Source of the DNA: Rhodobacter sp.
GTDB taxonomy: Bacteria; Pseudomonadota; Alphaproteobacteria; Rhodobacterales; Rhodobacteraceae
Direction of reading: 5' to 3'
Assembly (NCBI GenBank): GCA_027487395.1
Contig: JAIYDR010000384.1
Coordinates: forward strand, 9,732 to 73,731
Length of the DNA stretch: 64,000 nucleotides
Shown one piece after another: positions 13,664 through 61,635 of the stretch; position 1 is the first letter of the stretch; each line of letters starts with the position of its first letter. The translations under genes were made by a program, and so were the position numbers. The notes below the pieces were generated by a model. The model saw only the letters and a list, made by a program, of their open reading frames with translations. It did no database searches and had not been told where the DNA came from.

Positions 13664-13673
13664 TGGAGTCACC

Positions 13674-23029: not shown

Positions 23030-23045
23030 CAGGGCAGGGGGGCAT

Positions 23046-23608: not shown

Positions 23609-23638
23609 TAGACTGGAGTCTTTGGCTAAGCCGATCAC

Positions 23639-25790: not shown

Positions 25791-25822
25791 CGCAATATAT
25801 TGTGGTGGACCCGTGACAATCC

Positions 25823-25851
25823 CCGCGAGGGAAAGTATAAATCGCGGGCAA
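25823..25851 (+). promoter_or_regulatory. Putative gyrB promoter (GTGACA-N17-TATAAA)
   Basis: The -35-like hexamer (25823-25828) and -10-like hexamer (25846-25851) lie about 20 nt upstream of the gyrB ATG. The -10 sits in the loop of the 7-bp inverted repeat CCCGCGA/TCGCGGG (25832-25858). Confidence 0.35.
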
Positions 25852-25855
25852 TTGA

Positions 25856-28321
<2,466 letters not shown>

Positions 28322-42695: not shown

Positions 42696-42696
42696 G

Positions 42697-43116
42697 TCAG
42701 ACCAACTTTAGCAGCAAGGCCAAAAGCTGCGCCCGTTCGGGCGCGGTCAACGGGACGAGCGTTTCGGCACTGACCTTCAGCGCCGTCGCCACCCCTTCGG
42801 CAAACAACGCCGCCCCCGCCCCGGTCAGGGAAACGGTAAGGCGGCGTTTGTCATTGGGATCGGCGGCGGTTTCCACCAAACCCTGCCGTGCCAGCCGGTC
42901 CACAACGCCCTTGATCGTGGCGGCATCCATCGCCGTCATCCGTCCCAGATGATTCTGCGATAGCGGCCCCAGTTCGGACAGGCGCGCCAGCACCGCCCAT
43001 TGCACCGAGGTCACCTGCGGCAGACGTTCGGTGAAGATCGCAAGATGCCGCTGGGTCACGCGCCGCAGCACATAACCGATCTGGTCGTCCAGCACATATT
43101 CCGGGCGCTCTGTCAT
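42697..43116 (-). CDS. MarR-family transcriptional regulator
   Basis: 139 aa from MTERPEYVLDDQIGYVLRR...; winged HTH ...QWAVLARLSELGPLSQNHLGRMTAMDAATIKGVVDRL...; divergent from the hydroxylase cluster. Confidence 0.85.
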   Translation of the reverse strand: MTERPEYVLDDQIGYVLRRVTQRHLAIFTERLPQVTSVQWAVLARLSELGPLSQNHLGRMTAMDAATIKGVVDRLARQGLVETAADPNDKRRLTVSLTGAGAALFAEGVATALKVSAETLVPLTAPERAQLLALLLKLV

Positions 43117-43214
43117 GGCTTGAAATAGACCGCGACCGATTGCCGCGCAAGAATGTTGACAGATGCTCCGCCTGTCCGCAATCTCATGTGCATACAAACG
43201 ATATGGGTCGCCCA

Positions 43215-44033
43215 ATGCTGTTTGCCCGCCCCGACACCCTGACACAGGCGATTGCGCTTCGGGCGCAGGGGATGCGGGTTTTGTCGGGTGGGACAGACCT
43301 CTATCCCGGAGCATCGGCAGAACTTTCGGGCGATGTCCTGGACCTGACCGCCATCCCCGCCCTGCGCGATATGACCCAAGGTCCGGATGGCTTGCGAATC
43401 GGGGCGTGCACGACTTGGAGCGATTTGGTGGAGGCAGATTTGCCCCCCGCCTTGACCGCCCTGCAACAGGCGGCGCTTCAGGTCGGGGGGCGGCAAGTGC
43501 AAAACGCCGGGACCATCGGCGGCAACCTCTGCAACGCCTCTCCGGCCGCAGATGGCGTGCCGCCGCTTCTGGTGCTGGATGCGGTGGTGGAATTGACAGG
43601 ACCGACCGGTGCACGGTCCCTGCCGCTGGATCAGTTTATCATCGGCCCCCGCCGCACGGCACTGGCGCAGGGCGAAATCCTGACTGCCATCACGCTGCCG
43701 CACAGCGCCCTGACCGGACGATCCGCCTTTGTCAAACTGGGCGCGCGGGCGCATCTGGTGATCTCAATCGCCATGGTCGCGGTGCGGATTTCGCTGGAAA
43801 AGGGTCACATTTCCCACTGCGCGCTGGCGGTTGGCTCTTGCGGTCCCGTCGCCTGCCGCCTGCCAAGGCTAGAGGCCGCGATCCTTGGTCTGACGCTGTC
43901 TCAGGCGCTGGAACAGATCACCCCTACGGCGCTCGATGCCCTGTCACCCATCGACGATATTCGCGCCACTGCCGCCTATCGGAGGGAAGCCGCCGCCGAA
44001 CTCCTCCGCCGCGCAGTGACGGAGGCCGCATGA
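43215..44033 (+). CDS. Molybdenum hydroxylase FAD-binding subunit (CoxM/XdhB-like)
   Basis: MLFARPDTLTQAIALRAQG...LSGGTDLYP...; 272 aa. A perfect TTGACA lies at 43156-43161 upstream. The alternative ATG is at 43203. Confidence 0.8.
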   Translation: MLFARPDTLTQAIALRAQGMRVLSGGTDLYPGASAELSGDVLDLTAIPALRDMTQGPDGLRIGACTTWSDLVEADLPPALTALQQAALQVGGRQVQNAGTIGGNLCNASPAADGVPPLLVLDAVVELTGPTGARSLPLDQFIIGPRRTALAQGEILTAITLPHSALTGRSAFVKLGARAHLVISIAMVAVRISLEKGHISHCALAVGSCGPVACRLPRLEAAILGLTLSQALEQITPTALDALSPIDDIRATAAYRREAAAELLRRAVTEAA

Positions 44034-46699
44034 TCACCTTCACCCTCAACGGCCAACCCGTCACCACCGACAGCGCCCCAACCCGCCGCCTGTCCGAGGT
44101 GCTGCGTGAGGATTTGGGGCTGAAAGGCACCAAAGTTGGCTGCGACGCGGGCGATTGCGGCTCTTGCACCGTGCTGGTGGATGGCCGCGCGCTGTGCGCT
44201 TGCTTGACCCCCGCCGCACGGATTGCGGGCGCGCATGTCGAAACGGTGGAGCGCGAGACCCCCGAACTCACCCGCCTGCGCACTGCCTTTCTGCGCCACG
44301 GCGCGGCGCAATGCGGCATCTGCACGCCGGGAATGCTGATGGCCGCCGTTGATCTGTTGCGCCGCAATCCCACACCCAGCGAAGCTGAAGCATCCGAGGC
44401 CTTGGGCGGCGTGCTCTGCCGTTGCACCGGTTATCGCAAGATCATCGCCGCCGTTTGTGACACGACCGATAGCGCCGCGATCACCACCGGCGGCGTTGGC
44501 ACGGCGCTTCAACGGATTGACGGCGCGGCCAAAGTGGCGGGCGATCTTTTCGGGGCCGATGTGGTGCCTGACGGAGCTTTGACGCTGAAAGCGATCCGCT
44601 CTCCCCACCATCACGCGGCCTTCACCTTCGGCGATCTGACCGCCTATGCCCAACGTCCCGGCGTGGCGGGCGTCTTTACCGCCGCCGATATCCCCGGCCT
44701 GAATCGCTTTGGCGTCATCCCGCCTTTCGCCGACCAACCCGCCATCGCCCCCAGCCCCGCGCGGTTTCGCGGTGAATGCGTGGCCTTGGTGGCGTTTGAG
44801 CCGGGGGTGACCCCTGATCTGTCCGACTTTCCGATCCACTGGCAAGAACGCCCCGCCCAGATGATCCCGGCCGAGGCCGAGACCTCATCCCATCTGATCC
44901 ACGACAACCGCCCCGGCAACCGTCTGACCGAAGGCCGCGTGGTCAAGGGCGATGCTGCCGCCGCCCTCGCCACCTCTGCCCATATCGTCGAAGGCGAGAT
45001 CACCACTGCCTTCGTCGAACACGCCTATATCGAACCTGAGGCTGGATCCGCGTGGATGGAGGGCGATGTCCTCAACATCCGCGCCTGCACCCAAGCCCCC
45101 GTCATGGACCGCGATGACACCGCCACCATCCTGGCCCTGCCCCATGACCGCGTCCGCATCCGGCCCAGCGCTGTGGGTGGCGGTTTCGGGTCAAAGCTGG
45201 ATGTCAGCCTGCAACCGCTGCTCGGGCTTGTGGCGCTGAAAACCGGACGGCCCGTGCGGATGACCTACACACGGCAAGAAAGCATGGCCTCCACCACCAA
45301 ACGCCACCCGGCCGAGATTCGGGGCCGCATCGGCTGCGACGCCACAGGCCGGATCACCGCCGTCGCCTTCGAAGGCCGCTTCGACACTGGCGCCTATGCC
45401 TCTTGGGGCCCCACCGTGGCAAACCGCGTCCCGGTCCATGCCTCTGGCCCCTACCTGACACCGCATGTCCACGCCCGCGCCCGCGCGATCCACACCAACG
45501 GCCCCGTCTCGGGGGCCTTCCGGGGCTTCGGCGTGCCACAGGCCGCCATTTGGCAAGAAACCCTCTTTGACCAACTCGCCGACAAAGCCGGGATCGACCG
45601 GCTGGAGTTCCGCATCCTCAATGCCCTGACCGATGGCGATCTGTCCGCCACCGGCCAAGTGATGCAGGCCACCGGCATCCGCGAATGTCTTGAAGCGCTC
45701 CGCCCCCATTGGTACCGCGCCTTGGCCGAGGCACAGGGCAAACCCGGACGCGGCGTCGGCCTTGCCTCATGCTGGTATGGCTGCGGCAACACGTCTTTGC
45801 CCAACCCTTCCACCATCCGCATTGGCATCACACCCAGTGGCCAGATCGTCCTGCACCAAGGCGCCACCGACATCGGCCAGGGATCGAACACCGTCATCCC
45901 CCAGATCGCCGCGCAAGCCTTGGGTCTGCCCGTCGAACTGTTCCACCTGATCGGCCCGGATACCTTCCTGACCCCGGATGCCGGCAAAACCTCGGCCAGC
46001 CGACAAACCTATGTCTCCGGCCGCGCCGCCCATGACACTGCCCGCGCGCTGCGGTCACAGATATTGCGGCTGGCCAATGCCTCGGACGCCGCCACCTTGT
46101 CACTGGCCAATGGCACCTTAACCGTCACCGAAGGCACCACCCGCCGCGACATCGCTCTCGCGTCCCAGCCCATCGGCGAAGATGGCTATGTCCTGCTCGC
46201 CGAAGAAACCTATGACCCGCCCACCGCGCCTTTGGATGCCAATGGCCAAGGCAAACCCTACGCCGTCTACGGCTATGGTGCGCAACTGGTCGAACTCCAT
46301 GTTGACCGCGCCCTCGGCACCGTCAAACTGCTGAAGATCACCGCCGCTCATGATGTGGGTCGCGCCATCAACCCCCAACTCGCCGAAGGCCAGATCGAAG
46401 GCGGCATCGCCCAAGGCATCGGCCTTGCCTTGATGGAGGAATACCTCCCCGGCCGGACCGAAAACCTGCACGACTACCTGATCCCTACCACAGGCGACGT
46501 CCCGCCCATCCAGTCAATCCTTTTGGAAATCCCCGATCCCGAAGGCCCCTTCGGCGCAAAGGGCTTGGGCGAACATGTCCTGATCCCCACCGCCCCCGCC
46601 ATCCTCAACGCCATCCGCCACGCCACCGGGGCCAAGATCACCCGCCTGCCCGCCCTGCCCCACCGCATCCGCGCCGCGATCCTAGGGGCAAAGCCATGA
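44030..46699 (+). CDS. Fused [2Fe-2S] plus molybdopterin-binding subunit of a xanthine dehydrogenase/aldehyde oxidase-family hydroxylase
   Basis: ATGA overlap with the FAD subunit. CDAGDCGSCTV and CGICTPGM cluster motifs are followed by about 730 aa of Mo-cofactor domain. 889 aa. Confidence 0.85.
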   Translation: MITFTLNGQPVTTDSAPTRRLSEVLREDLGLKGTKVGCDAGDCGSCTVLVDGRALCACLTPAARIAGAHVETVERETPELTRLRTAFLRHGAAQCGICTPGMLMAAVDLLRRNPTPSEAEASEALGGVLCRCTGYRKIIAAVCDTTDSAAITTGGVGTALQRIDGAAKVAGDLFGADVVPDGALTLKAIRSPHHHAAFTFGDLTAYAQRPGVAGVFTAADIPGLNRFGVIPPFADQPAIAPSPARFRGECVALVAFEPGVTPDLSDFPIHWQERPAQMIPAEAETSSHLIHDNRPGNRLTEGRVVKGDAAAALATSAHIVEGEITTAFVEHAYIEPEAGSAWMEGDVLNIRACTQAPVMDRDDTATILALPHDRVRIRPSAVGGGFGSKLDVSLQPLLGLVALKTGRPVRMTYTRQESMASTTKRHPAEIRGRIGCDATGRITAVAFEGRFDTGAYASWGPTVANRVPVHASGPYLTPHVHARARAIHTNGPVSGAFRGFGVPQAAIWQETLFDQLADKAGIDRLEFRILNALTDGDLSATGQVMQATGIRECLEALRPHWYRALAEAQGKPGRGVGLASCWYGCGNTSLPNPSTIRIGITPSGQIVLHQGATDIGQGSNTVIPQIAAQALGLPVELFHLIGPDTFLTPDAGKTSASRQTYVSGRAAHDTARALRSQILRLANASDAATLSLANGTLTVTEGTTRRDIALASQPIGEDGYVLLAEETYDPPTAPLDANGQGKPYAVYGYGAQLVELHVDRALGTVKLLKITAAHDVGRAINPQLAEGQIEGGIAQGIGLALMEEYLPGRTENLHDYLIPTTGDVPPIQSILLEIPDPEGPFGAKGLGEHVLIPTAPAILNAIRHATGAKITRLPALPHRIRAAILGAKP

Positions 46700-46829
46700 C
46701 CCCGCATTCATTGTCCTCAGATATCCTTGGGCGGTCTGGAGGGCAGACAGCCCTCCGGGGCCAGACACAGAGACGGACAGATCAAGGCGGCAACCATCCC
46801 CCTATCCCCTTAGGGGTGAGGTGGCATCG

Positions 46830-48263
46830 ATGACCGCACAAGAGAAAATCCGCTGCGATGCCTGCCCGGTGATGTGTTACATCGCCCCCGGCCAGACCGG
46901 GGCTTGCGACCGTTATGCCAATGACGCAGGGCGGATTGTGCGCACCGATCCGGTGCTGATGCTGAGCCATGCGCTGCGAGGCAGCGAAAAGATCATCCCC
47001 TTTGCCGCCGCCGAATGGCAGGATGGCCTTGTGCCGGTGGACACCGTGGTGACTGGCATCGGGTCCGGCACGACCTATCCCGATTACAAGCCCGCACCCT
47101 TTATCGTGTCCTCGCAGATCGACGGCGCGGAGTTGGTCACCGTGGTGACCGAGGCGATCTTTTCCTATTGCGGCGTCAAGGTGAAGATCGACACCGACCG
47201 TCACCTTGGCCCCGAAGGCGCCGTGATCCGCGTCGATGGCGAGCCCGTTGGCCATGTCACCACCGCCGAATATGGCAGTCAGATGCTCTCGCTTGGCGGC
47301 GTGCATCACCTGACCGGAGGCAGCAAGGGCGAAGGTCGCATCACCTGCGCCGCGATGCTGGCGCTGTGCAATCGTGACGCCGTGACGCTGACCATCGACG
47401 GCGGCTCAACCGTCACCGTGCAGGCTGGCCAGCCGCCCATCGTGGACGGCACCCCGGAACGGCGCATGCGCGTCGGCTGCGGCTCGGCGACCATTGGCAT
47501 GTTCGCCAGCCAATGGCAGGGCTTGGTCGATGAGGTGGTGGTTGTCGATGACCACATCACCGGCGTCGTCAGCGAACATCAGGCAGGAAAGGTGATCGGC
47601 TGGCCCGCGACAGGCATCCGCATCAAGGGCCACCGCTCTACCCCTGGCCGCTACTTCCGCGTGTCTGATCCCGGCTTGGGATGGGGCGGCACGAAGCTGA
47701 TAGACCCGTTGGACATCCTCGGCCCGTGGAACGCGGCCAAAGGCGCGCGGCCCGGATTGCGGCTGTTGATGGTGTCAACGACGGGCGAGGAATACGGCTA
47801 CTACATCCTCGATGCGTCTCTAATCCCGCAAAAGCACCCGTTGCCGCCGGAACTGGAACCCTCCGTCAAATTGATTGATGAAAACTGCGAACCCTCGCTT
47901 TGCACCGTCCTGTTCATGGGCGGCGCGGGGGGCAGTCTGAGGGCGGGGGTGACGAAAAATCCGGTACGGCTAACTCGGTCCGTGCAGGCGCGTGAGACTC
48001 GGCTGACCTGCGGCGGGGCCGAATGCTATGTCTGGCCCGGGGGTGGGATCACCTTCATGGTCGATGTGCTGGACCTGCCGCCCGGCAGTTTTGGCTATGT
48101 CCCCACACCCGCGCTGGTGGCCCCGTTGGAGTTCACCCTGCCACGGGCTTCCTATCTGCGCTTGGGCGGGCATGATGAGGCGATCCGCTCCCTCCCCGAC
48201 ATCCTGCAAAACGGCGGCGAATACCCCACCGCAGCGAAACTCCATCCAAGGGGGCAGGGATGA
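46830..48263 (+). CDS. 6-hydroxynicotinate reductase-like Fe-S protein
   Basis: N-terminal Cys motif CDACPVMCYIAPGQTGACDRY. Family recalled from database annotations, not verified. GTG at 46821 is the alternative start. Confidence 0.5.
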   Translation: MTAQEKIRCDACPVMCYIAPGQTGACDRYANDAGRIVRTDPVLMLSHALRGSEKIIPFAAAEWQDGLVPVDTVVTGIGSGTTYPDYKPAPFIVSSQIDGAELVTVVTEAIFSYCGVKVKIDTDRHLGPEGAVIRVDGEPVGHVTTAEYGSQMLSLGGVHHLTGGSKGEGRITCAAMLALCNRDAVTLTIDGGSTVTVQAGQPPIVDGTPERRMRVGCGSATIGMFASQWQGLVDEVVVVDDHITGVVSEHQAGKVIGWPATGIRIKGHRSTPGRYFRVSDPGLGWGGTKLIDPLDILGPWNAAKGARPGLRLLMVSTTGEEYGYYILDASLIPQKHPLPPELEPSVKLIDENCEPSLCTVLFMGGAGGSLRAGVTKNPVRLTRSVQARETRLTCGGAECYVWPGGGITFMVDVLDLPPGSFGYVPTPALVAPLEFTLPRASYLRLGGHDEAIRSLPDILQNGGEYPTAAKLHPRGQG

Positions 48264-49084
48264 GCGCGCAAGTCACATGGCTTCCGGGGGGACGATTGCA
48301 CCTCCATCACGGGCCGATTGATGTGATCCTGCAAGGTTGGGGCGACGCGCGGTCGCTACAAGCGGGCTATGCGGCGGCGGTGACCAGATTCGACACCATT
48401 CTAGAGGAATTGGTGTCTGAACTGCCTGCGCTGCGATCCCCGGATGCCGCAGTGACCGGACCCACCGCACGGTTGATGGCCGCTGCCGTAATCCCTTTCC
48501 GCCCCACCTTCATCACGCCCATGGCCGCTGTCGCCGGGGCCGTCGCCGACACCATCCTGCGCGCCTTTGTCCGCCCCGGCATCACCCGCGCTTTTGCCAA
48601 CAACGGCGGCGACATCGCACTGCATCTGGACCCCGGCGAACACCTGACCTGCGCCATCGCGGGGGCAGCCGGAAGCGTCACGATCCACGCCGCCGATAGG
48701 GTGCGCGGCATCGCCACCTCGGGTTGGCGGGGGCGCAGTTGGTCTTTGGGTATCGCGGATTCAGTGACGATCCTTGGCAAAACCGCAGCCGAGGCCGATG
48801 CCGCAGCGACCATCGTCGCCAATGCGGTGGACCTGCCGGGCCATCCCGCCATCACCCGCCGCCCCGCTTTTGACCTACAAGCCGACAGTGACCTTGGCCC
48901 CCGCCTTGTCACCACCAATGTCGCCCCCCTGACCGCAACCGAGGCGCAAACCGCCGTAGATCGCGGTGCAGCCACAGGGCAAGCGGCGCTGGCGCGCGGA
49001 CTGATCGACGGCGCGTTGATTTTCCTGCACCCTGCAGTGCGAACCCTTGGCACCCTGCGCTTGAAGGAGCCTGAACTTGCCTGA
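48260..49084 (+). CDS. UPF0280-family protein
   Basis: 274 aa; ...LHLHHGPIDVILQGWG... pattern recalled for UPF0280; ATGA overlap with the upstream gene. Confidence 0.5.
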   Translation: MSAQVTWLPGGRLHLHHGPIDVILQGWGDARSLQAGYAAAVTRFDTILEELVSELPALRSPDAAVTGPTARLMAAAVIPFRPTFITPMAAVAGAVADTILRAFVRPGITRAFANNGGDIALHLDPGEHLTCAIAGAAGSVTIHAADRVRGIATSGWRGRSWSLGIADSVTILGKTAAEADAAATIVANAVDLPGHPAITRRPAFDLQADSDLGPRLVTTNVAPLTATEAQTAVDRGAATGQAALARGLIDGALIFLHPAVRTLGTLRLKEPELA

Positions 49085-49658
49085 CTTCCCCCTCCGCCGC
49101 ATCACCACACAGATCGAGGAGATCCACCACGAAGGGGGGCCCCTCGCCAATCCGCCCGCCCTGCGCGGCGCGATCATCGCCGTGGTGGGCAACCCCTTCG
49201 CCGGACGCTACGAGCCGGATTTACAGCCCGCGATGGAGGCCTTGAAACCCCTCGCCCTCCTGTTGACCGACCGTCTGGTCGCCGCTTTGGGCGGGCGCGA
49301 CGGCATTGATGCCTATGGCAAAGGCGCCATCGTGGGTGAAAGCGGCGAGTCCGAACATGGCGCGCTGTGGCATGTCGCGGGCGGTTACGGGATGCGCGAC
49401 CGCTTGGGCGAGTGTCGGGCCATCGTGCCCTCCGCCATGAAACTGGGCGGCATCGGGTCCACGCTGGATGTCCCCTTGGGGCACCTGAACGCCGCCTATG
49501 TGCGCTCGCGTTTTGACGTGATCACCGTGCGGATGGAGGATGCGCCGAAAGCGCATGAGATGGCGTTGGTCTTGGCCATGGCGCGCGGCGGACGGGTCCA
49601 CAGCCGCATGGGCGGACTAGAGGTCTGGCAGGTGAAGGGCGAGGACGGGCTAAGATGA
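49077..49658 (+). CDS. Amino-acid-synthesis family protein (AA_synth, PF06684/DUF1185-like)
   Basis: TTG start overlapping the upstream stop. ...YGKGAIVGESGESEHGALWH... and ...AAYVRSRFD... match my memory of PF06684. Confidence 0.55.
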   Translation: MPDFPLRRITTQIEEIHHEGGPLANPPALRGAIIAVVGNPFAGRYEPDLQPAMEALKPLALLLTDRLVAALGGRDGIDAYGKGAIVGESGESEHGALWHVAGGYGMRDRLGECRAIVPSAMKLGGIGSTLDVPLGHLNAAYVRSRFDVITVRMEDAPKAHEMALVLAMARGGRVHSRMGGLEVWQVKGEDGLR

Positions 49659-51055: not shown

Positions 51056-51143
51056 AATGATGTAAAGTTTCAGACGCATACCTACAGGTTTCAACCAAGG
51101 GTCCGCAAGAACGACGGACCCGATCACCAGCGGAGAGAAGACC

Positions 51144-52418
51144 ATGAAGAAAGAACTGCTCGTCCCGAGCCGTCGCTCGGTCCTCAAGGGGATGGGGGCC
51201 GGCATCGTGGCCTCGGCCTTCCCCGGTTATACTTGGGCGCAGTCCTCTGCCTCCATCAAATTGGGGTTCCAACTCCATCGCACCGGGATTGGTGCGGCTT
51301 ACGGCCGCTGGTATGAACGCACGGCGCAGGCGGCGTTGAAGGTCGTCAATGATGCAGGCGGCATCAATGGCCGCCCGGTGGAAATCCTGTTCGAGGATGA
51401 CGCCACAGACCCCAAGCGCGGCGCAGAGGTGGTGGAAAAGCTGGCCAATGACGGCTGCGATCTGATCTTCGGGCCGCTGTTTTCGCATGTGGTCATCGGG
51501 TCCGCGCCGCGCGCGGGAGAGTTGAAGATCCCTTACCTTGTCTGTTCCGAAGGCTACCATGTCGCATCGGGCATGCTGAACCGCTGGACTCTGCAACCCG
51601 GCATCACCGATGTGCGGTCGCAAGTGTCGTCGATGGCCCCGTGGGTGGCGGCGAACTTGGGCAAAAAGGTCACGATGGTCTATCCCGACTACGCCTTTGG
51701 CTACGACCACCGCGATTTCTTTACCGAGGCGATCAAGGCCCAAGGCGGCGAGGTCATCGCACAAATCGCCATCCCGCCGACGGAAACCACCTTTACCCGT
51801 TATCTGCCGCAAATCCCGGCCGAGACTGAGGTGCTGTATCACGTCATGGTCGGTCCGGCCGTACTGACCTTTGTCAAAGAACTGGGCGATTTTTACGGCT
51901 CTGGCGCGCGTCCGCAGATTTTCGGCTTTATCGACTCGCTGGAGGCCGTCGATACCGCCTCGCCGGGGTTGGAATTCCTGGAAGGGACGTATTTCTGGGA
52001 GGCGATGAACCGCGTTAAACAGGACGGCCAGTCCGAAGCCGAGACTGCCTATCGCGCCGCCGTGGGCGTGGATGACAATGGCGCGTCTGTGACGGATGCG
52101 GCGGATGTGTCCACCTACAGCCATATGTTCAGCGTCTGGGAAACCCTTCACACGATCAAGGCGGGGATGGAGGCTGCGGGTTATCAATCCACCGCCGACC
52201 GCCAAAAGTTTGTTGAGGCTTTGGAGGCGATGACGACAATGGCTGAGGGGCCGGGCAATCCGCAGGGCGACAAGGTGTTCAACGGCAAGACCCATCAGGT
52301 GTTCGGCCATCAGAACATCAGCCAAGTCACCGGGGGCAAGATGATGCGCGTCCACCGCACCAGCATCGAGGATGGCCAATATCCCGACGCCGTGGATTAC
52401 ACCACGATGTCCTTCTGA
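51144..52418 (+). CDS. ABC transporter substrate-binding protein (LivK/branched-chain amino acid type) with Tat-like signal
   Basis: SRRSVLKGMGAGIVASAFPGYTWA signal; type I periplasmic-binding fold; GGAGAGAAG Shine-Dalgarno sequence. Confidence 0.85.
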   Translation: MKKELLVPSRRSVLKGMGAGIVASAFPGYTWAQSSASIKLGFQLHRTGIGAAYGRWYERTAQAALKVVNDAGGINGRPVEILFEDDATDPKRGAEVVEKLANDGCDLIFGPLFSHVVIGSAPRAGELKIPYLVCSEGYHVASGMLNRWTLQPGITDVRSQVSSMAPWVAANLGKKVTMVYPDYAFGYDHRDFFTEAIKAQGGEVIAQIAIPPTETTFTRYLPQIPAETEVLYHVMVGPAVLTFVKELGDFYGSGARPQIFGFIDSLEAVDTASPGLEFLEGTYFWEAMNRVKQDGQSEAETAYRAAVGVDDNGASVTDAADVSTYSHMFSVWETLHTIKAGMEAAGYQSTADRQKFVEALEAMTTMAEGPGNPQGDKVFNGKTHQVFGHQNISQVTGGKMMRVHRTSIEDGQYPDAVDYTTMSF

Positions 52419-52426
52419 TCCTAACA

Positions 52427-52455
52427 GGGCGGGGGCAATCCCCCGCCCCTTTTTT
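52427..52455 (+). terminator. Intra-operon Rho-independent terminator/attenuator after the binding-protein gene
   Basis: GGGCGGGGG-CAAT-CCCCCGCCC followed by CTTTTTT, 9 nt after the stop codon. Confidence 0.65.
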
Positions 52456-52468
52456 CGGGGATGCCGCC

Positions 52469-53347
52469 TTGAGTTTCGGACCCTTCCTTTTGCTGGCGGT
52501 GATGGAGAGCCTTGTCACCGCCGCCACACTCGCCTTGACCGCTGTTGGGCTGTCCTTGGTGTTCGGCACCATGCGGGTGGTCAATGTCGCACATGGCGAG
52601 TTTTTCATGCTGGGCGCTGTCTTGGCATGGTTCGTCACCGGCTGGGTGGGCGGACCAGAATGGATCGGCTTTGTTGCCGCCTTGGCACTTGCGCCCTTGG
52701 GTGTGGCCGCCGTCGCCACCTTGGCGGATCGCCTCGTGCTGAAGCGCCTGAGCTATGAGCCAGAGGCGACCATCGTCGCCACCATCGGTCTGCTTTACAT
52801 CCTGCAACAGGCGGCGCTGACGTTTTACGGGCCTGAGGCGCGGCCAGTAGAGCCGCCCTTCAACTTTCGCATCCAATTCCCGTGGTTCGGCTATTCCGGC
52901 TACAAGCTGTTCGTGATCTTTGCCGCCGTTGCGGTGTTGCTTGCGGTCTGGTGGGGCCTGACGCGCAGCAAGGCGGGCCTGGTCATGCGCGCCACGCAAG
53001 TGGACCGCGACACCGCCCGCGCCTTTGGGATCAACGTGGATCGGGTCTATGCTGGGGTTTTCGCGCTTGGCGCCGCGCTGGCGGCGATTGCGGCGGTGCT
53101 GATCGTGCCCATTCAGCAAGCGCATTACCTGATGGGCGGGGAGCCGCTCTTGCTGGCCTTTATCACCGTCATTGTCGGCGGGTTAGGGTCCTTGCGCGGC
53201 ACAGTCATCGCGGCCTTAGTGATCGGGCTGTCGGATGGGCTGATCGCGTTCTTCTACTCGCCCACATTGGCGAAGATTCTGGCAACGCTGCTGGTGGCCT
53301 TGGTGCTGGTGTTCCGCCCGCAGGGGCTGTTTGGGGCGAAAACATGA
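52469..53347 (+). CDS. Branched-chain amino acid ABC permease (LivH-type)
   Basis: TTG start; 292 aa; LivH-like TM pattern. Confidence 0.85.
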   Translation: MSFGPFLLLAVMESLVTAATLALTAVGLSLVFGTMRVVNVAHGEFFMLGAVLAWFVTGWVGGPEWIGFVAALALAPLGVAAVATLADRLVLKRLSYEPEATIVATIGLLYILQQAALTFYGPEARPVEPPFNFRIQFPWFGYSGYKLFVIFAAVAVLLAVWWGLTRSKAGLVMRATQVDRDTARAFGINVDRVYAGVFALGAALAAIAAVLIVPIQQAHYLMGGEPLLLAFITVIVGGLGSLRGTVIAALVIGLSDGLIAFFYSPTLAKILATLLVALVLVFRPQGLFGAKT

Positions 53348-54270
53348 AAGTGTGGGTCGCGCATCTGGCCGTCTTGGCGGTTCTGGGCGTGCTGCTGGCG
53401 GTGCTGCCCGCCTATCACGCCACCAACCTTGCCCGTATCCTAACGCTGGCGGTGTTTGCAACGGGATATAATCTGGCCTTCGGTTACACGGGGCTGTTGT
53501 CGCTGGGCCATGCGCTGTTCTTTGCCGCTGGTGTCTATGGCGCGGCTTTGCCGGTGACCTATTGGGGTCTGTCGCCCCTGCCCGCCATCGGTTTGGGCTG
53601 TTTGGCGGGGGGCGGGCTAGCCGCCTTGGTCGGCCTCCTGGCGCTGCGAACGGCGGGGGTCAGTTTCATGATCGTGACGCTGATGTTTGCGCAGGCGGGG
53701 TATCTGACCCTGCTCTATTTCGGCCAAATCACCGGCGGCGATGAAGGGTTGGTCATGCCCGACGCCACCGCGTTGATCCCCGGCCTGTCCCCCGACACCG
53801 CCCGCGCGGTGATCGCCTTTACGCTGTTTGCTGTGGCCTTGCTGTTATCGCTCGCCGTGATCCGCAGCCGTCTTGGCCGCGTCATGGTGGCGATGCGCGA
53901 GAATGAAGAGCGCAGCCGCATGCTGGGCTATAACCCGTTCACCGTGAAGTTATCCGCACTCGTCCTGTCGGGTTTGTTCGCAGGCGCGGCGGGGGCGGGC
54001 TATGCCTTGCTGTTCGGCTATGCCGGGGCGAGTTTTGCGACCATCCAATACTCCATCCTGCCAATGTTGTGGGTGCTGATGGGCGGGGCAGGGACCACGC
54101 TCGGCCCGCTGCTGGGGACGGCGGCGATGTTCTATCTGGTCGATGGCGCGGCGCGGATCACGACGGCGACGCTGCTCGTCGTGGGGGTGGCGCTGGTCCT
54201 GCTGATCCTGTTTGCACCGAAAGGCATTCTTGGCACGATAAGGGAAAGGGGCGCGCGATGGATTCCGTGA
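53344..54270 (+). CDS. Branched-chain amino acid ABC permease (LivM-type)
   Basis: MKVWVAHLAVLAV... from an ATGA overlap; 308 aa. Confidence 0.85.
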   Translation: MKVWVAHLAVLAVLGVLLAVLPAYHATNLARILTLAVFATGYNLAFGYTGLLSLGHALFFAAGVYGAALPVTYWGLSPLPAIGLGCLAGGGLAALVGLLALRTAGVSFMIVTLMFAQAGYLTLLYFGQITGGDEGLVMPDATALIPGLSPDTARAVIAFTLFAVALLLSLAVIRSRLGRVMVAMRENEERSRMLGYNPFTVKLSALVLSGLFAGAAGAGYALLFGYAGASFATIQYSILPMLWVLMGGAGTTLGPLLGTAAMFYLVDGAARITTATLLVVGVALVLLILFAPKGILGTIRERGARWIP

Positions 54271-54977
54271 TCTTGTCGGCACGCGGCCTGACGCGGCATT
54301 TCGGCGGCTTGCGCGCGGTGGATGGCGTCGATTTCGACCTGTATACGGGGGAAATTCACGCCCTGATCGGCCCCAATGGCGCGGGCAAAACCACCTTTGT
54401 CGGCCTGCTGTCAGGGCGCGTTCCGGTGCAAGCGGGCAGCATCACCTTGGGTGGAGAGGACATTACAGCCTTGCCCGCCCATGCCCGCGTTCGCAAGGGA
54501 ATCGCCTATACGTTCCAGATCACTTCGGTCTACCCGCGCCTGTCGGTCTATGACAACGTGGCCTTGGCCGTCCCACCCGAATCCGGCGAATTGCGCCCCG
54601 CCGTCATGGCCGCGCTGTCGCGGGTGGGGCTGGCGGATCGGGCGGATCAAATCGCCGGGACGCTCTCCTACGGTCATCAGCGGTTGTTAGAGCTTGGCAT
54701 GGGCCTCGCCCTGCGCCCGCGTGTGCTGATCCTGGATGAACCGACCCAAGGGCTGGCCTCGGGAGAGGTCGCAGGCTTTGCCGCGCTGGTGCGGTCATTG
54801 GTGCCAGAAACCACGGTGCTGCTGATCGAGCACAATATGGAGCTGGTCATGGACCTCGCCCAGCGCATCACGGTCTTGAACTTCGGTCAGGTGCTGGCCA
54901 CCGGGACGCCTGCGGAAATCCGCGCCAACACGGCGGTGCAAGCGGCCTATCTGGGGGGCGATGATGCTGCGGCTTGA
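54258..54977 (+). CDS. ABC transporter ATP-binding protein (LivG-type)
   Basis: Walker A GPNGAGKTT; signature LSYGHQRLLE; Walker B LILDEP. Confidence 0.9.
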   Translation: MDSVILSARGLTRHFGGLRAVDGVDFDLYTGEIHALIGPNGAGKTTFVGLLSGRVPVQAGSITLGGEDITALPAHARVRKGIAYTFQITSVYPRLSVYDNVALAVPPESGELRPAVMAALSRVGLADRADQIAGTLSYGHQRLLELGMGLALRPRVLILDEPTQGLASGEVAGFAALVRSLVPETTVLLIEHNMELVMDLAQRITVLNFGQVLATGTPAEIRANTAVQAAYLGGDDAAA

Positions 54978-55659
54978 CGGGGTGGCGGCGGGTTATGGCG
55001 CGGTGCGTGTGCTGGAAGGCGTATCGTTGACCGCAGAACCGGGTCAGATCACCTGCATCATGGGCCGCAACGGGGCGGGGAAATCGACCCTAATCAAGGC
55101 GATTATGGGTCTGGTTCCGCCCACAGCGGGGACAGTCACGCTGGACGGGGTGGCGCTGCACGCCTTACCCGCGCATCTGATCCCCCGCCATGGTGTGGCC
55201 TATGTTCCGCAGGGGCGGCGGCTGTTCGGGCCGCTGACCGTCGCGGAGAACCTGTCCATCGGGCTGATGACGCGCGGTTTCGGGGATGAAACGCGGGAAC
55301 AGGTGCTGACCCTGTTCCCCCGCCTGCGCGAGCGGTTGGATCAAGTGTCGCAGACCCTGTCCGGGGGCGAGCAGCAGATGCTGGCCATCGGGCGGGCCTT
55401 GTGTCTGGAGCCCAAGGTGATCTTGCTGGACGAACCGACCGAAGGCTTGCAGCCATCGATGATCGCGCTGATCCGGGATGTGGTGATGAAACTGAAGGCC
55501 CAAGGCGTGGCGGTGGTCTTGGTGGAACAGCGCCCCGATGCCGTGCTGCGCATGGCCGATCGCGTGGCCTTCATGGCGCAGGGGCGGGTGGCGACGGTGG
55601 TGGCAGCGGCGGAACTTTCGCGGGAATCGTCTCTATTCCAGCAATTTGTGGGGGTCTGA
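54961..55659 (+). CDS. ABC transporter ATP-binding protein (LivF-type)
   Basis: Walker A GRNGAGKST; signature LSGGEQQML; Walker B ILLDEP. Confidence 0.9.
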   Translation: MMLRLDGVAAGYGAVRVLEGVSLTAEPGQITCIMGRNGAGKSTLIKAIMGLVPPTAGTVTLDGVALHALPAHLIPRHGVAYVPQGRRLFGPLTVAENLSIGLMTRGFGDETREQVLTLFPRLRERLDQVSQTLSGGEQQMLAIGRALCLEPKVILLDEPTEGLQPSMIALIRDVVMKLKAQGVAVVLVEQRPDAVLRMADRVAFMAQGRVATVVAAAELSRESSLFQQFVGV

Positions 55660-57678
55660 ATGTCGGGACTGGTCGCCGGGGTGGATGTCGGCGGAACCTT
55701 TACAGATCTGGTGATCCTTGATCCTGCCAGCGGTGCCGTGCGTCTGGCCAAGGTGCCGACCAGCCTGCCCAATCAAGCGCCGGGGGTCTTGGCGGCCTTT
55801 GATGCTGCCGGAGCGGACTTGGCGGGGATTGATCTGATCGTGCATGGCACGACGACCACGACCAATGCCGTGCTGGAACGCGCCCTGTGCAAAACGGGCC
55901 TGATCACCACGGCAGGTTTCCGAGATGTGCTGGAACTGGGGCGCAGGACGCGGCCGCAACCCTATGGCATGACCGGCACCTTTACCCCCGTCATCCCGCG
56001 CGACCTTCGGCTTGAAGTGCCGGAACGCATGGATGCGCAGGGGCGGGTTCTCACCCCTTTGGACGAAGCAGAGTTGCGGGAAACAGTGTCTAAACTGGCG
56101 GAAATGGGGTGTGAAAGCCTCGTGATCCATTTCCTGCACGCCTATGCCAATCCGGCGCATGAACTGCGCGCCTTAGAGATTGCGCGTCAGATCTGGCCCA
56201 CCCCTTACATCACGTGCGGCCATCACCTGCTGTCGGAAAGCCGCGAGTTTGAGCGCGGAGTGACGGCGGCGGTCAATGCCTCGGTCCAGCCCTTGCTGGA
56301 ACGCTATGTGGCGCGGCTGGCAGATGGGCTGCGCGACAAAGGCTATACCCGCGACCTGCTGGTGATGAACGGCAACGGCGGCATGGTCGCGGCGGGCAAG
56401 GTCAGCCGTGAAGCGGTGAAAACCGTGATGAGCGGCCCGGCGTCGGGCGTGATGGCGGCGATTGCGACGGGGCGGCGGGCGGGTTTCCCGAACCTCTTGA
56501 CCTATGACATGGGCGGCATATCGACCGATGTCGCGATGATCCGAAACCACCGCGCGCCGGTATCGAATGAGATCGAGGTGGAATATGCCATGCCGATCCA
56601 TGTGCCGATGGTGGATGTGCGCACCGTCGGCGCGGGTGGCGGGTCCATTGCGCGGGTGGATGCGGGGGGCATGCTGCGGGTGGGGCCAGAGTCGGCAGGG
56701 TCCACACCGGGACCGATCTGCTATGGCCGGGGTGGCACGCGGGTCACGATTTCGGACGCGAACCTGATCCTTGGTCGCCTGCCTGCCGATCGTTTTGGGG
56801 TCGCAGCCGAGGATGCGCGGCAAGCGATGGCGGACCAGATCGCAGCACCCTTGGGTCTGGGGGTAGAGCAGGCGGCAGAGGCGGTGCTCAGGATCGCCAA
56901 CACCCATATGGCAGGCGCAATCCGCATGGTCAGCATCAGCATGGGTGCCGATCCGCGCGATTTCGCGCTGTTTGCCTTTGGCGGGGCGGGGCCGTTGCAT
57001 GCGACCGCCTTGGCGCGCGAATTGGCAGTGCCGCGGGTCCTGATCCCGGCACGTCCGGGAATCACCAATGCCTTGGGCTGTGTGGTGGCCGATCTGCGGC
57101 ATGACTTTGTGCGCACGGTGAACCGGCCCTTGGACGTTGCCGATATGGATCAGGTGCATGGGATTCTGGCGGGGCAAGAGGCCGAAGGCCGTGCGCTGAT
57201 CGCGGCAGAAAAGATCACGCTGGCTGAGGTGCGGGCCGAATTCAGCGCCGATATGCAGTTTGTCGGGCAGACGCATTTGCTGCGGATTGCCTTGCCGCAT
57301 GCGACCCCGTCGCGCGCGGATCTGCAAGCGCTGTTTGAACGGGCCTATCACGACCGTTTCCGCGTTGATCTGCCCAGCATTCGGGCAAACCTTGTGAACC
57401 TGAATTGCTCGGTCATCGGACGTAGGCCGGATATGGACCTGTCGCGCCTGATTGACCCAAGCGAGCGTTTGGCCATCGCCACGCCAAAGGCGCATCGGCA
57501 GGTCTGGTTTGGCGGTTGGATCGATACGCCAGTCTATTGGCGCGACCACCTGCCGCTTGATCCCGGCCTCACCGGCCCCTGCATCATCGAACAGATGGAC
57601 ACGACCATCGTGATTGATCCCGGCTGCACCGTCTCGGGCGACAGTGACGGAAACCTGATCGTAGGGGTGGGCGCATGA
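55660..57678 (+). CDS. Hydantoinase/oxoprolinase family protein, A subunit (HyuA-like)
   Basis: 672 aa; N-terminus GVDVGGTFTDLV; full-length HyuA architecture. Confidence 0.9.
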   Translation: MSGLVAGVDVGGTFTDLVILDPASGAVRLAKVPTSLPNQAPGVLAAFDAAGADLAGIDLIVHGTTTTTNAVLERALCKTGLITTAGFRDVLELGRRTRPQPYGMTGTFTPVIPRDLRLEVPERMDAQGRVLTPLDEAELRETVSKLAEMGCESLVIHFLHAYANPAHELRALEIARQIWPTPYITCGHHLLSESREFERGVTAAVNASVQPLLERYVARLADGLRDKGYTRDLLVMNGNGGMVAAGKVSREAVKTVMSGPASGVMAAIATGRRAGFPNLLTYDMGGISTDVAMIRNHRAPVSNEIEVEYAMPIHVPMVDVRTVGAGGGSIARVDAGGMLRVGPESAGSTPGPICYGRGGTRVTISDANLILGRLPADRFGVAAEDARQAMADQIAAPLGLGVEQAAEAVLRIANTHMAGAIRMVSISMGADPRDFALFAFGGAGPLHATALARELAVPRVLIPARPGITNALGCVVADLRHDFVRTVNRPLDVADMDQVHGILAGQEAEGRALIAAEKITLAEVRAEFSADMQFVGQTHLLRIALPHATPSRADLQALFERAYHDRFRVDLPSIRANLVNLNCSVIGRRPDMDLSRLIDPSERLAIATPKAHRQVWFGGWIDTPVYWRDHLPLDPGLTGPCIIEQMDTTIVIDPGCTVSGDSDGNLIVGVGA

Positions 57679-59357
57679 TTGATCCCGTTACGCTGGCCGT
57701 CATCCAAGCGGGCTTGCAGCAGGTCTGCGATGAGATGGACCTGACCTTCTCGCGCGCGGCCTTTTCTCCGGTGATTGCCGAAGCCGACGACCGCTCCGAC
57801 GGCATCTATTCCGCCCGCGATGGCAGTCTGATCGCCCAAGGCGCGCGCGGTCTGCCGGTCTTTGTCGGGACGATGCAGTTTTCCACGCGGCATATCGTGG
57901 AACGGATCGCCAGCGGGCAGACCCTGCCGCCGGAACCGGGGGATATCTACATCGTCAATGACCCCTACCTTGGGGGCACGCATCTGATGGATGTGCGGTT
58001 CGCCATGCCGTTCTATCGGGAGGGTCAGATTTTCTGCTGGCTGTCCAATACCGGCCATTGGCCCGACACGGGCGGCGCCGTGCCCGGCGGGTTTTCGGCC
58101 AGTGCCATCAGTGCCGAACAAGAGGGGCTGCGTCTGCCCCCCGTAAAGCTGTTCAAGCGCGGGGTGATGGATACGGAGTTGTGGCAGGTGATCTGCTCTA
58201 ACATCCGGGTCTCAGAGCAACGAATTGGCGATGTGAAGGCACAGGCTTCGGCCCTGCTGGTGGGTGCGGATCGGCTGGGGCAGTTGATGGACCGCTACAG
58301 CGACGCTGCGGTGACCGAAGCGATTGCCGAAATGCGGGTTTTGGCCGCGCGGCAGATGCGCGCCAATATCGGGCTGATCCCGGATGGCAGCTACCGGGCA
58401 ACGGCGATTGTGGACAGTGACGGGGTGGTGAATGAACCGCTGACGATTGCCTTGACGGTGACAAAGGGCGAAGCGGGCCTGACCTTTGATTTCGCCGGAA
58501 CCTCGCCGCCTTGCATGGGGCCGATGAACTCGGTCCGGGCGACCACGCTGTCGTCGGTGTACCTCGCGATGCGGCATATCTTCCCTGATGTGCCTATTTC
58601 TGCGGGGGCCTTTGAACCCCTAACCGTGACCGGCATCGAAGGCACCTTCCTTGACGCGCAATACCCCCGGCCCGTGTCGGGCTGCGCGGCAGAGGTGTCA
58701 CAAAGGATTGCTGAGGCGGTTTTTGCCGCCTTGGTGCAGGCGCTGCCGGATAAGGTCACCGCCGCGCCTGCGGGAACGTCGGGGAACTTCGGGCTTGGTG
58801 GGCATGACCCGGAAAAGGGCCGGGATTATGTGATGTATCAAATCTCTGGCGGGGGTTATGGCGGCAATGCGCGCCATGACGGGCTGTCGAATGGCTGTTC
58901 CACCATCGGCATCTCAAAAGCCCCGCCGGTCGAGATCATGGAGCAGACCTTCCCAGTCCTTTACCGCCGATATGCGCTGCACGAAGGATCGGGCGGAGCC
59001 GGGCAGCATCGCGGCGGCTTTGGACTGGATTATGAGATCGAACTTCTGCGCGGGACGGCACGGGCCTCTTTCGTGATGGACCACGGGCGCACAGGGCCGC
59101 AGGGCGCGCAAGGCGGAAGGGACGGCGCAGTCAATCGGGTGGAAATCCTGAAAGGCGATCAGGTCATCATCCCCGATCACCTGTCCAAAGCGCAGGATAT
59201 TGCCCTTTCGCCGGGAGACCGCGTTCGCGTCCGCACGCCCGGTGGTGGCGGCTACGGTGATCCTGTGTCGCGCGATCCCGCGGCAATTGCCGAAGATGTG
59301 CGGCTTGGCCGATACTCGGCTGCGGAAGCGTATCAGTTATGGGGTTATTCCGGGTGA
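57675..59357 (+). CDS. Hydantoinase B/oxoprolinase family protein (HyuB-like)
   Basis: 560 aa; MIDPVTLAVIQAGLQQVCDEM...; ...NDPYLGGTHLMD... motif; ATGA overlap with hyuA. Confidence 0.9.
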   Translation: MIDPVTLAVIQAGLQQVCDEMDLTFSRAAFSPVIAEADDRSDGIYSARDGSLIAQGARGLPVFVGTMQFSTRHIVERIASGQTLPPEPGDIYIVNDPYLGGTHLMDVRFAMPFYREGQIFCWLSNTGHWPDTGGAVPGGFSASAISAEQEGLRLPPVKLFKRGVMDTELWQVICSNIRVSEQRIGDVKAQASALLVGADRLGQLMDRYSDAAVTEAIAEMRVLAARQMRANIGLIPDGSYRATAIVDSDGVVNEPLTIALTVTKGEAGLTFDFAGTSPPCMGPMNSVRATTLSSVYLAMRHIFPDVPISAGAFEPLTVTGIEGTFLDAQYPRPVSGCAAEVSQRIAEAVFAALVQALPDKVTAAPAGTSGNFGLGGHDPEKGRDYVMYQISGGGYGGNARHDGLSNGCSTIGISKAPPVEIMEQTFPVLYRRYALHEGSGGAGQHRGGFGLDYEIELLRGTARASFVMDHGRTGPQGAQGGRDGAVNRVEILKGDQVIIPDHLSKAQDIALSPGDRVRVRTPGGGGYGDPVSRDPAAIAEDVRLGRYSAAEAYQLWGYSG

Positions 59358-60403: not shown

Positions 60404-60475
60404 CGAAAGCCGCTGAAAGGCTGACAGGCACAGGGATTTGGGCTAACGCAGGCGCGTCAACCTAAGGGGGCCGCC

Positions 60476-61429: not shown

Positions 61430-61635
61430 CCGGGTCACAATCTATGGTCGTCTGGGCGGGTCTGTTGCTGGATTGACCACAATATATCCGAAAGGTGGGG
61501 CTTTTTTCACTAAACATACATACGGTGCTGGAAATTCTATCGAAAGGCGCGTAAACGTGGTGGCAATAGGGCCACTTGATGGCCGTTCATAACGGCGCCC
61601 GCCAAGGGATGCCATTTCGAGGCGGAGTAGATCAC

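Follow-up and report, generated by a model that had tools for sequence, protein, structure and literature searches.

A HyuAB-type variant of the proteobacterial nicotinate gene cluster predicted in a Rhodobacter sp.

The subject of this study is a gene cluster at positions 42697-59357 of a 64,000-nucleotide (nt) stretch of DNA from Rhodobacter sp. (assembly GCA_027487395.1, contig JAIYDR010000384.1, positions 9,732 to 73,731 of the forward strand), which is referred to as the window. Listing of the open reading frames (ORFs), inspection of start codons and family scans showed that the cluster consists of a divergent MarR gene and 13 close-packed plus-strand genes. A preliminary description of the locus had counted 15 plus-strand genes, a number that is reached only with two CorA-like genes at 59339-61429. 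As described below, we regard the locus as a predicted nicotinate cluster in which HyuA and HyuB (HyuAB) are the candidate enzyme for ring opening.

The MarR-family regulator is encoded at 42697-43116 on the minus strand (Pfam MarR_2 and MarR). On the plus strand, the first two genes encode a CoxM/XdhB-like flavin adenine dinucleotide (FAD) subunit (43215-44033; FAD_binding_5, 140 bits, and CO_deh_flav_C, 67 bits) and a fused [2Fe-2S] and molybdopterin subunit (44030-46699; Fer2, Fer2_2, Ald_Xan_dh_C and MoCoBD_1/2). They are followed by a 477-residue protein of the Hnr family (46830-48263), whose homologues are named 6-hydroxynicotinate reductase, a UPF0280 or ApbE-superfamily protein (48260-49084; NF003322, 341 bits against a cutoff of 290), an AA_synth protein (49077-49658; PF06684, also DUF1185, 216 bits against a gathering score of 27) and a polytopic membrane protein of 466 residues, with about nine hydrophobic segments and no family match (49655-51055). 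The next genes encode a LivK-type periplasmic binding protein with a Tat leader (51144-52418; Peripla_BP_6, 175 bits), the permeases LivH (52469-53347) and LivM (53350-54270), both with BPD_transp_2, and the ATPases LivG (54258-54977) and LivF (54964-55659), both with ABC_tran. HyuA (55660-57678; Hydant_A_N, Hydantoinase_A and Hydant_A_C) and HyuB (57675-59357; Hydantoinase_B, 516 bits) complete the cluster. The family assignments of the preliminary description all agree with these Pfam and NCBIfam scans and, for the Hnr-like ORF, with the names of its homologues.

Start and stop codons overlap as ATGA at four of the cluster junctions; the remaining junctions measure -8, -13, -14, 0 and +2 nt, and there are gaps of 50, 88 and 130 nt. 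The longest of these gaps (46700-46829), which separates the hydroxylase genes from the Hnr ORF and contains a stem-loop, GGAGGGC-AGACA-GCCCTCC, at 46738-46756, would measure 121 nt with GTG at 46821 as the start codon. The hydroxylase and Hnr genes of Fuscovulum ytuae overlap by 4 nt, and the 130-nt spacer of the window is a local insertion. We infer that the whole gene set is co-transcribed.

Inspection of the first two gene products with Pfam revealed the full set of FAD, two [2Fe-2S] and molybdenum cofactor (MoCo) domains of a molybdenum hydroxylase of the xanthine dehydrogenase (XDH) family. The start of the FAD subunit at 43215 agrees with that of its relatives, and its best NCBIfam match is XdhB, with 168 bits, under the cutoff of 310. 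The fused subunit matched chains L, M and S of the Eubacterium barkeri nicotinate dehydrogenase (3HRD) with 238, 219 and 110 bits, and this sum of 567 bits is higher than the 360 bits obtained for the best single chain in the PDB. No NCBIfam equivalog cutoff was reached by the fused subunit, the top model being 'selenium-dependent xanthine dehydrogenase' with 540 bits against 830. In other Hnr clusters the hydroxylase is encoded by two genes, annotated nicA/nicB by the depositor. From these comparisons, the FAD and fused FeS/MoCo subunits presumably form a nicotinate 6-hydroxylase.

The ORF at 46830-48263 had been placed in the 6-hydroxynicotinate reductase family, and this assignment holds, as more than 8000 homologues, many of them so named (NCBI, JGI and UniRef), were found. 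The ORF matched no Pfam or NCBIfam model, while an exhaustive homologue search with it gave 1238 cluster representatives at E <= 0.001. Full-length distant members, of the anaerobe type, align with it end to end, at 33-46% identity. A profile search built on 15 distant members yielded only anaerobe-type proteins of metagenomic origin, with no named E. barkeri entry among them. An N-terminal CX2CX3CX9C motif (C9, C12, C16 and C26) is invariant across the family in two alignments and is presumed to be an Fe-S site. Neither the window protein nor any proteobacterial member has the N-terminal 2x[4Fe-4S] domain, whereas Fer4 Pfam matches are present in all 120 of the anaerobe-type members listed. 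Alhapel et al. reportedly found covalently bound flavin and Fe-S clusters in Hnr, and they are also said to have noted similar clusters in several Proteobacteria. The product of the ORF would be a candidate for the reduction of 6-hydroxynicotinate.

A PDB search with the Hnr profile gave no relative by sequence. The AlphaFold model of Hnr had a predicted local distance difference test (pLDDT) score of 79 and a predicted template modelling (pTM) score of 0.77, and Foldseek found no match to this model in the PDB, the best hit having E = 0.013 and the query-normalised TM-score being at most 0.12. The fold, as judged from the model, appears to be structurally uncharacterised. The only hints, both faint, are a Pfam match with E = 0.0012 and a Foldseek probability of 0.47 for 1WOS, which point to the C-terminal barrel of GcvT. 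A gene for ferredoxin-NADP reductase lies beside Hnr in, for example, the Sagittula, Sulfitobacter and several Mesorhizobium loci, and is absent from the Tabrizicola-type arrangement.

Taken in the order of the pathway, the LivK-type ATP-binding cassette (ABC) transporter and its conserved membrane partner would import the substrate, the XDH-family molybdenum enzyme would convert nicotinate to 6-hydroxynicotinate, and Hnr, with UPF0280 and AA_synth as its companions, would reduce 6-hydroxynicotinate to 1,4,5,6-tetrahydro-6-oxonicotinate (THON). HyuAB, replacing enamidase, would then hydrolyse the six-membered lactam of THON with ATP to give 2-(aminomethylene)glutarate, which would yield 2-formylglutarate and ammonium. 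The later steps, namely decarboxylation, oxidation to glutarate and formation of glutaryl-CoA, would be encoded elsewhere in the genome; scans of the rest of the 64-kilobase (kb) window found no glutarate-pathway gene and no further pathway gene. The work of Kitts et al. in 1992 is said to have taken the Azorhizobium route onward by decarboxylation to glutarate and glutaryl-CoA.

Much of this gene set has been described before. A nicotinate cluster that encodes the first three steps, two conserved unknown proteins and an ABC transporter was reported from Azorhizobium caulinodans ORS571, Bradyrhizobium japonicum USDA110, Rhodopseudomonas palustris HaA2 and strain SG-6C (PMC3511419); that paper cites Alhapel 2006 and Kitts 1989/1992 for the pathway. 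SG-6C, a member of the Bradyrhizobiaceae, grows on nicotinate and 6-hydroxynicotinate, and its orthologue of Hnr, in the same cluster type, is 42% identical to the E. barkeri enzyme (PMC3511419). The THON route is found in both E. barkeri and A. caulinodans, and the ring-opening enzyme of E. barkeri is a bifunctional enamidase (PMC9304392). In the aerobic Azorhizobium this route dates to 1989-1992, according to the citations in PMC3511419 and PMC9304392. The preliminary description had proposed a hybrid route with no characterised example in an aerobic alphaproteobacterium; for the core of the cluster this claim does not stand, since that core had been described (PMC3511419) and the THON route was known in Azorhizobium.

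Comparison with the clusters of ORS571 (AZC_2790-2804), USDA110 (blr3818-3830), HaA2 and SG-6C indicates a similar pathway through 6-hydroxynicotinate and THON. The window has the features of this cluster type, that is, a molybdenum hydroxylase beside Hnr, two conserved unknown proteins and an ABC transporter, but lacks the enamidase of the third step. The four published clusters are reported to include a gene for the third step, identified in BLAST comparisons with that of E. barkeri and hence by implication an enamidase, whereas the window has HyuAB. The enamidase-type clusters that we examined directly were those of Sulfitobacter, Rhizobium etli, R. gallicum and a Comamonadaceae plasmid. 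The Rhodobacter cluster belongs to the known proteobacterial nicotinate/THON family, and only the exchange of enamidase for HyuAB seems to be undescribed in the literature searched. No paper linking HyuAB to nicotinate catabolism or to ATP-dependent opening of its ring was found, in an incomplete literature search whose outcome is absence of evidence only.

Two better-studied systems help to place the cluster. The fermentation cluster of E. barkeri (Alhapel et al. 2006) contains NdhFSLM, Hnr and enamidase (2VUN), followed by a 2-methyleneglutarate branch. Its opening two reactions, and the families of the enzymes involved, are shared with the window, with good matches of the molybdenum subunit to the 3HRD chains and homology of the window Hnr to the anaerobe-type proteins. 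The window differs in that the FeS and molybdenum subunits are fused, that neither enamidase nor the downstream fermentation genes are present, and that Hnr, unlike its anaerobe-type homologues, is without the N-terminal 2x[4Fe-4S] domain. The nic cluster of Pseudomonas putida KT2440 (NicAB and the MarR-type NicR; Jimenez et al. 2008) is similar in its MarR-type regulation and in the first step to 6-hydroxynicotinate. The KT2440 route is oxidative, by way of 2,5-dihydroxypyridine, and is not known to include Hnr, enamidase or HyuAB, whereas the hydroxylase of the window is of the FAD-containing XDH type.

HyuA and HyuB carry the complete two-subunit domain set, with Hydantoinase_A and its N- and C-terminal domains in the former and Hydantoinase_B in the latter. 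Their best NCBIfam models are the caprolactamase subunits CapA (478 bits for HyuA) and CapB (303 bits for HyuB), each below its cutoff of 1000. In the PDB, the bit scores of HyuA and HyuB were 424 and 215 with N-methylhydantoinase (7HK5), 386 and 255 with caprolactamase (6YRA_A and 6YRA_B of 6YRA), 282 and 120 with acetophenone carboxylase (5L9W), and 219 and 70 with acetone carboxylase (5M45/5SVB). Since scores in both NCBIfam and the PDB are much higher for the hydrolase members, HyuAB was judged unlikely to act as a carboxylase. HyuB forms a distinct subfamily: the plasmid matches within it are 70-83% identical, the next one 57%, and the rest at most 43%.

ATP-dependent hydrolysis of chemically stable lactams, among them the six-membered delta-valerolactam, is known for enzymes of the HyuA/HyuB class (PMC11033972; PMC8453981). 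As THON is a six-membered enamide lactam, its ATP-dependent opening by HyuAB would therefore have precedent by analogy. CapAB of Pseudomonas jessenii (6YRA, PMC8453981), OplAB of P. putida, which acts on delta-valerolactam (PMC11033972), and N-methylhydantoinase (7HK5) have the same two-subunit architecture and the same Pfam domains as HyuAB. Compared with CapAB, HyuAB falls far under the CapA and CapB equivalog cutoffs and belongs to its own subfamily, and its predicted substrate is an enamide-type lactam with a carboxylate.

The preliminary description had stated that no enamidase-type amidohydrolase is encoded here, and tblastn with two enamidases (E <= 1e-10, query coverage >= 50%) indeed found nothing in the 64-kb window. 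Both queries, sampled from the plasmid enamidases described next, match PDB 2VUN over the full length (E = 1e-106 and 2e-111). The distribution of the two ring-opening enzymes was clearest on plasmids. All 26 PLSDB plasmid records with Hnr had one of the two, 16 an enamidase and 10 a HyuB near Hnr, with no record having both and none having neither. The 16 enamidases are 65-100% identical to the Sulfitobacter one and lie within a few kb of Hnr, and the 10 HyuBs are 70-83% identical to that of the window. Both types occur inside Rhizobiaceae and inside Roseobacteraceae in PLSDB, and the swap is therefore not a simple clade split.

A direct view of this exchange is given by the clusters of Sagittula stellata and Sulfitobacter pontiacus, which have 13 orthologous genes in common at 46-73% identity and differ solely in HyuAB versus enamidase. 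The common genes include those for the hydroxylase, ferredoxin-NADP reductase, Hnr, UPF0280, two AA_synth proteins, a Rieske oxygenase, the transporter and MarR. The alpha subunit of the Rieske-type oxygenase (19529-20599 in Sagittula and 20058-21125 in Sulfitobacter; 71% identical) is encoded just before the transporter genes and is not found in the window; we speculate that it is an N-demethylase by which an N-methylated pyridine, for instance trigonelline, enters the pathway in roseobacters.

On the genome side, a scan of species-representative genomes gave at least 597 matching stretches, and the closest 80 Hnr loci were examined. No enamidase was found within 10 kb in any of these 80 loci. 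Fully flanked loci numbered 51, of which 26 had HyuAB, 12 had the transporter at the edge of the flank, between -8 and -10 kb, and 13 had neither; in three of these last, the downstream ORFs are unrelated genes. HyuAB is presumed to lie just beyond the flank in the 12 edge loci. A second arrangement, seen in metagenome loci from the HyuB side, has HyuAB divergent from the membrane protein, binding protein and LivHMGF genes, followed by MarR and by the FAD, molybdenum and Hnr genes. The reverse test started from the window HyuB, with which 80 metagenome loci were retrieved, all with at least 75% identity. Upstream sequence of at least 9 kb was available for 33, and 31 of these contained cluster genes (24 with Hnr, UPF0280 or AA_synth, two more with the hydroxylase and five more with the membrane- and binding-protein pair), leaving two with none. 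The suggestion of the preliminary description that HyuAB may take over ring opening is thus strongly supported by comparative genomics, through the either/or pattern on plasmids, the Sagittula/Sulfitobacter swap and the reverse test.

The anaerobe-type loci give an indication of the original state. All five that were examined are ordered Aldedh, Fer2, FAD, Mo, Amidohydro_1, Hnr with Fer4, an ApbE-like gene in three of the five, and AA_synth. Because Amidohydro_1 stands beside Hnr in every one of them, enamidase looks to be the ancestral partner of Hnr. These loci come from Thermodesulfobacteriota and similar metagenome bins. Their aldehyde dehydrogenase suggests that the aldehyde from ring opening is oxidised, as in the Azorhizobium-type route, rather than reduced to 2-(hydroxymethyl)glutarate as in E. 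barkeri.

We infer the identity of the substrate and all catalytic activities, including ATP-dependent hydrolysis of THON, from sequence comparison. On this basis the cluster is very likely a nicotinate cluster, and the fuller reading, a MarR-controlled nicotinate operon or operon pair with HyuAB as the ATP-dependent ring opener of THON, is probable. Several observations weigh against it. The hydroxylase and HyuAB score under every NCBIfam equivalog cutoff, so that the substrate assignments come from context. The link from the window ORF to the purified E. barkeri Hnr is indirect, passing through the 42% identity reported for the SG-6C orthologue (PMC3511419). Although a ferredoxin-NADP reductase gene adjoins Hnr in many relatives, the 64-kb window has none, and the window Hnr is likewise without the 2x[4Fe-4S] domain of the anaerobe type, two gaps that bear on how electrons would reach it. 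The enamidase search covered the 64-kb window of this genome, and an unlinked enamidase elsewhere is possible. Among the 51 fully flanked genome loci, 13 have neither ring opener within 10 kb, and in the 12 with the transporter at the edge HyuAB is placed by presumption. Finally, seven plasmids of Sinorhizobium medicae and Rhizobium rhododendri carry a HyuB with 70-73% identity and no Hnr on the replicon; the HyuB subfamily is therefore not strictly tied to Hnr.

Some of these observations would also fit a nicotinate/THON cluster in which the ring is opened by an unlinked enamidase or another hydrolase, and in which HyuAB acts on another cyclic amide (a side product, 5-oxoproline or an imported lactam) or later, together with AA_synth. 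The 13 loci with neither enzyme imply that unlinked ring openers exist, HyuAB is far under the CapA and CapB cutoffs, and on the two Hnr-free plasmids examined, one from S. medicae and one from R. rhododendri, HyuAB, AA_synth and MarR occur together. Such a division of labour nevertheless seems unlikely to us, as it would have to coexist with the perfect either/or of enamidase and HyuAB on 26 plasmids, with two roseobacter clusters that differ in the ring opener alone, with the absence of enamidase from the closest 80 genome loci, and with the presence of cluster genes in 31 of 33 loci of the HyuB subfamily.

The choice between HyuAB and enamidase could also reflect different substrates, with the present cluster degrading an N-heterocycle other than nicotinate, such as another pyridine carboxylate or a hydroxypyridine. 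This would agree with the low equivalog scores of the hydroxylase noted above, with a top model for a selenium-dependent xanthine dehydrogenase, with the generic LivK/Urt-like nature of the binding protein, and with the fact that Hnr activity was shown for the distant E. barkeri enzyme only. Against this, identity to the hydroxylase and Hnr of the window is 57% and 65% for the enamidase-type cluster of Sulfitobacter and 58% and 67% for the HyuAB-type cluster of Sagittula, so that the two are equally similar. In addition, SG-6C, a bearer of this cluster type, grows on nicotinate and 6-hydroxynicotinate (PMC3511419), the hydroxylase is annotated nicA/nicB in other Hnr clusters, and nicotinate dehydrogenase gives the highest summed score in the PDB. 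We therefore consider a different substrate improbable.

The gene set is conserved as a unit, and the possibility that its genes are not co-conserved, which had been raised as a point that would speak against the cluster, was checked. The same set recurs across Rhodobacterales, Hyphomicrobiales and other lineages in several arrangements, which differ between genomes in the position of the transporter and HyuAB relative to the core; the nearest relatives are Tabrizicola-, Pseudotabrizicola- and Rhodobacter-like Paracoccaceae. All-versus-all clustering of ORFs from 87 loci was noisy owing to spurious antisense ORFs in GC-rich DNA, and its counts are rough: molybdenum hydroxylase genes adjoin Hnr in 79 of the 87, UPF0280 adjoins it in 77, and AA_synth is present in 74. 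Chance neighbourhood, or a mosaic of unrelated operons for a molybdenum enzyme, an amino-acid transporter and a hydantoinase, as might be suggested by the strong hairpin and T-run after the binding-protein gene and by the variable order of transporter and HyuAB, is highly improbable, being effectively refuted by this co-conservation across Rhodobacterales, Hyphomicrobiales and others and opposed by the overlapping stop and start codons at most junctions.

Returning to HyuAB as the THON ring opener, a wider statement can be made with a confidence only a little better than even. A large alphaproteobacterial lineage, including numerous Paracoccaceae and Roseobacteraceae as well as some Rhizobiaceae, Methylobacterium and Mesorhizobium, may have swapped the metal-dependent enamidase for a dedicated HyuAB lactamase with a new, ATP-dependent THON hydrolase activity, with Hnr, UPF0280 and AA_synth forming one module, Hnr having a fold with no solved relative, and AA_synth acting at ring opening or just after it, for example on the enamine or on 2-formylglutarate. 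The trio of Hnr, UPF0280 and AA_synth is kept from Alphaproteobacteria to the anaerobe-type loci.

For UPF0280, which also adjoins Hnr in three of the five anaerobe-type loci, a role as flavin transferase or maturation factor for Hnr is possible, with low confidence. The idea comes from the ApbE-superfamily labels together with the covalent flavin that Hnr reportedly carries, and confidence is low because no convincing ApbE-type target motif was found in Hnr. The ApbE link itself is based on precomputed labels (Pfam PF27030 AbpE_bact on the homologues), on the JGI name 'ApbE superfamily ... UPF0280' and on a weak PDB match to 2O34.

AA_synth occurs in all five anaerobe-type loci, and its PDB matches, 3BYQ and 2QTP, are uncharacterised proteins. 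It pairs with HyuAB or with enamidase-like genes in loci without Hnr. On S. medicae pSMED01 (locus at about 11950-17024) and the R. rhododendri plasmid (about 10969-17428), HyuA, HyuB, AA_synth and MarR are found without Hnr or UPF0280. On Agrobacterium vitis pAt (locus 8399-10194), AA_synth overlaps the gene of an enamidase-like amidohydrolase by 4 nt, with a FAD monooxygenase and an ABC transporter adjoining. Since AA_synth accompanies the ring-opening enzyme even where Hnr is absent, this pattern suggests that it serves ring opening or its product rather than Hnr.

The membrane protein at 49655-51055 matched no Pfam or NCBIfam model. Its gene directly adjoins that of the LivK-type binding protein in all three cluster arrangements seen, which is suggestive of an extra, undescribed component or partner of the ABC transporter. 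The leader of the binding protein contains the twin-arginine sequence SRRSVLK, with a weak Pfam TAT_signal match (E = 0.009). The remaining transporter genes encode two BPD_transp_2 and two ABC_tran domains and a BCA_ABC_TP_C domain, and their nearest NCBIfam models are UrtB-E and LivHMGF, all under cutoff.

Regulation was analysed from the spacer between the MarR and FAD genes. Alignment of this spacer from 18 relatives revealed a conserved block, located at 43147-43199 on the plus strand of the window, with the layout GCAAG-N4-GTTGACAG, 17 nt, CAATCT and the palindrome GTTTGCATACAAAC. The corresponding positions in the window are 43147-43151 for GCAAG, 43155-43162 for the -35 element GTTGACAG and, after a spacer of 17 nt, 43179-43184 for the -10-like CAATCT; the palindrome-like ATGTGCATACAAAC at 43186-43199 corresponds to the family consensus GTTTGCATACAAAC. 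The preliminary description had emphasised a TTGACA -35 hexamer. This hexamer is present at 43156-43161, but it is unremarkable alone, with 17 copies on both strands of the window, and a consensus promoter scan made no call there, the -10 being weak. Conservation of the block in relatives, rather than the hexamer alone, makes a good case that a genuine promoter, overlapped by an operator, lies upstream of the FAD gene.

The operator is presumably bound by the divergent MarR, which is likely the repressor of the cluster. The MarR protein reaches no NCBIfam equivalog cutoff. Its gene adjoins the cluster in 59 related loci (a rough count), and a 54% identical homologue in Pleomorphomonas is labelled nicR by the depositor. 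Within the cluster, a perfect hairpin of nine GC pairs followed by the T-run CTTTTTTC lies on the plus strand at 52427-52448, starting 9 nt past the stop codon of the binding-protein gene and before the permease genes. As the total of terminator-like sites found by the scan of the region was no higher than in shuffled sequence, this hairpin is suggestive only. It may be an internal attenuator or an mRNA-stabilising element, and it may adjust how much binding protein is made relative to the other transporter components or divide the cluster into two transcripts. A comparison of 42000-62000 with Rfam gave no known RNA element.

In water, soil and rhizosphere, niacin and its pyridine carboxylate relatives commonly occur as vitamins and exudates, and the cluster type is present in at least about 600 species-representative genomes. 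If HyuAB opens THON, a poorly understood enzyme class, of interest for the mild hydrolysis of lactams such as caprolactam and valerolactam, would gain a defined physiological substrate, and one catabolic step solved by either a metal amidohydrolase or an ATP-driven enzyme would be a clean natural case of non-orthologous displacement. Thousands of labels (hydantoinase, oxoprolinase, acetophenone carboxylase, "amino acid synthesis" and branched-chain amino-acid transporter) would then be corrected. The cluster also offers testable roles for three families without function, UPF0280, AA_synth and the membrane protein, and flags Hnr as a family without a solved fold.

HyuB is followed by two tandem paralogues of CorA-like Mg/Co transporters (59339-60403 and 60476-61429), the first of which overlaps the HyuB stop by 19 nt. 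As a CorA gene follows HyuB in just two of the 80 metagenome loci, these genes are probably not part of the pathway. The window otherwise contains flagellar genes, ubiE/ubiB, fpg, dnaA-dnaN-recF-gyrB, a tripartite ATP-independent periplasmic (TRAP) transporter, a P-type ATPase and an HlyD/AcrB efflux pair. From this setting the cluster is chromosomal, about 23 kb from dnaA. The genes dnaA, dnaN, recF and gyrB occupy 20190-28321, and the window thus spans the chromosomal replication-origin region; the flagellar genes (fliR/flhB-, fliI-, flagellin- and flgD-like) are located at about 218-14318.

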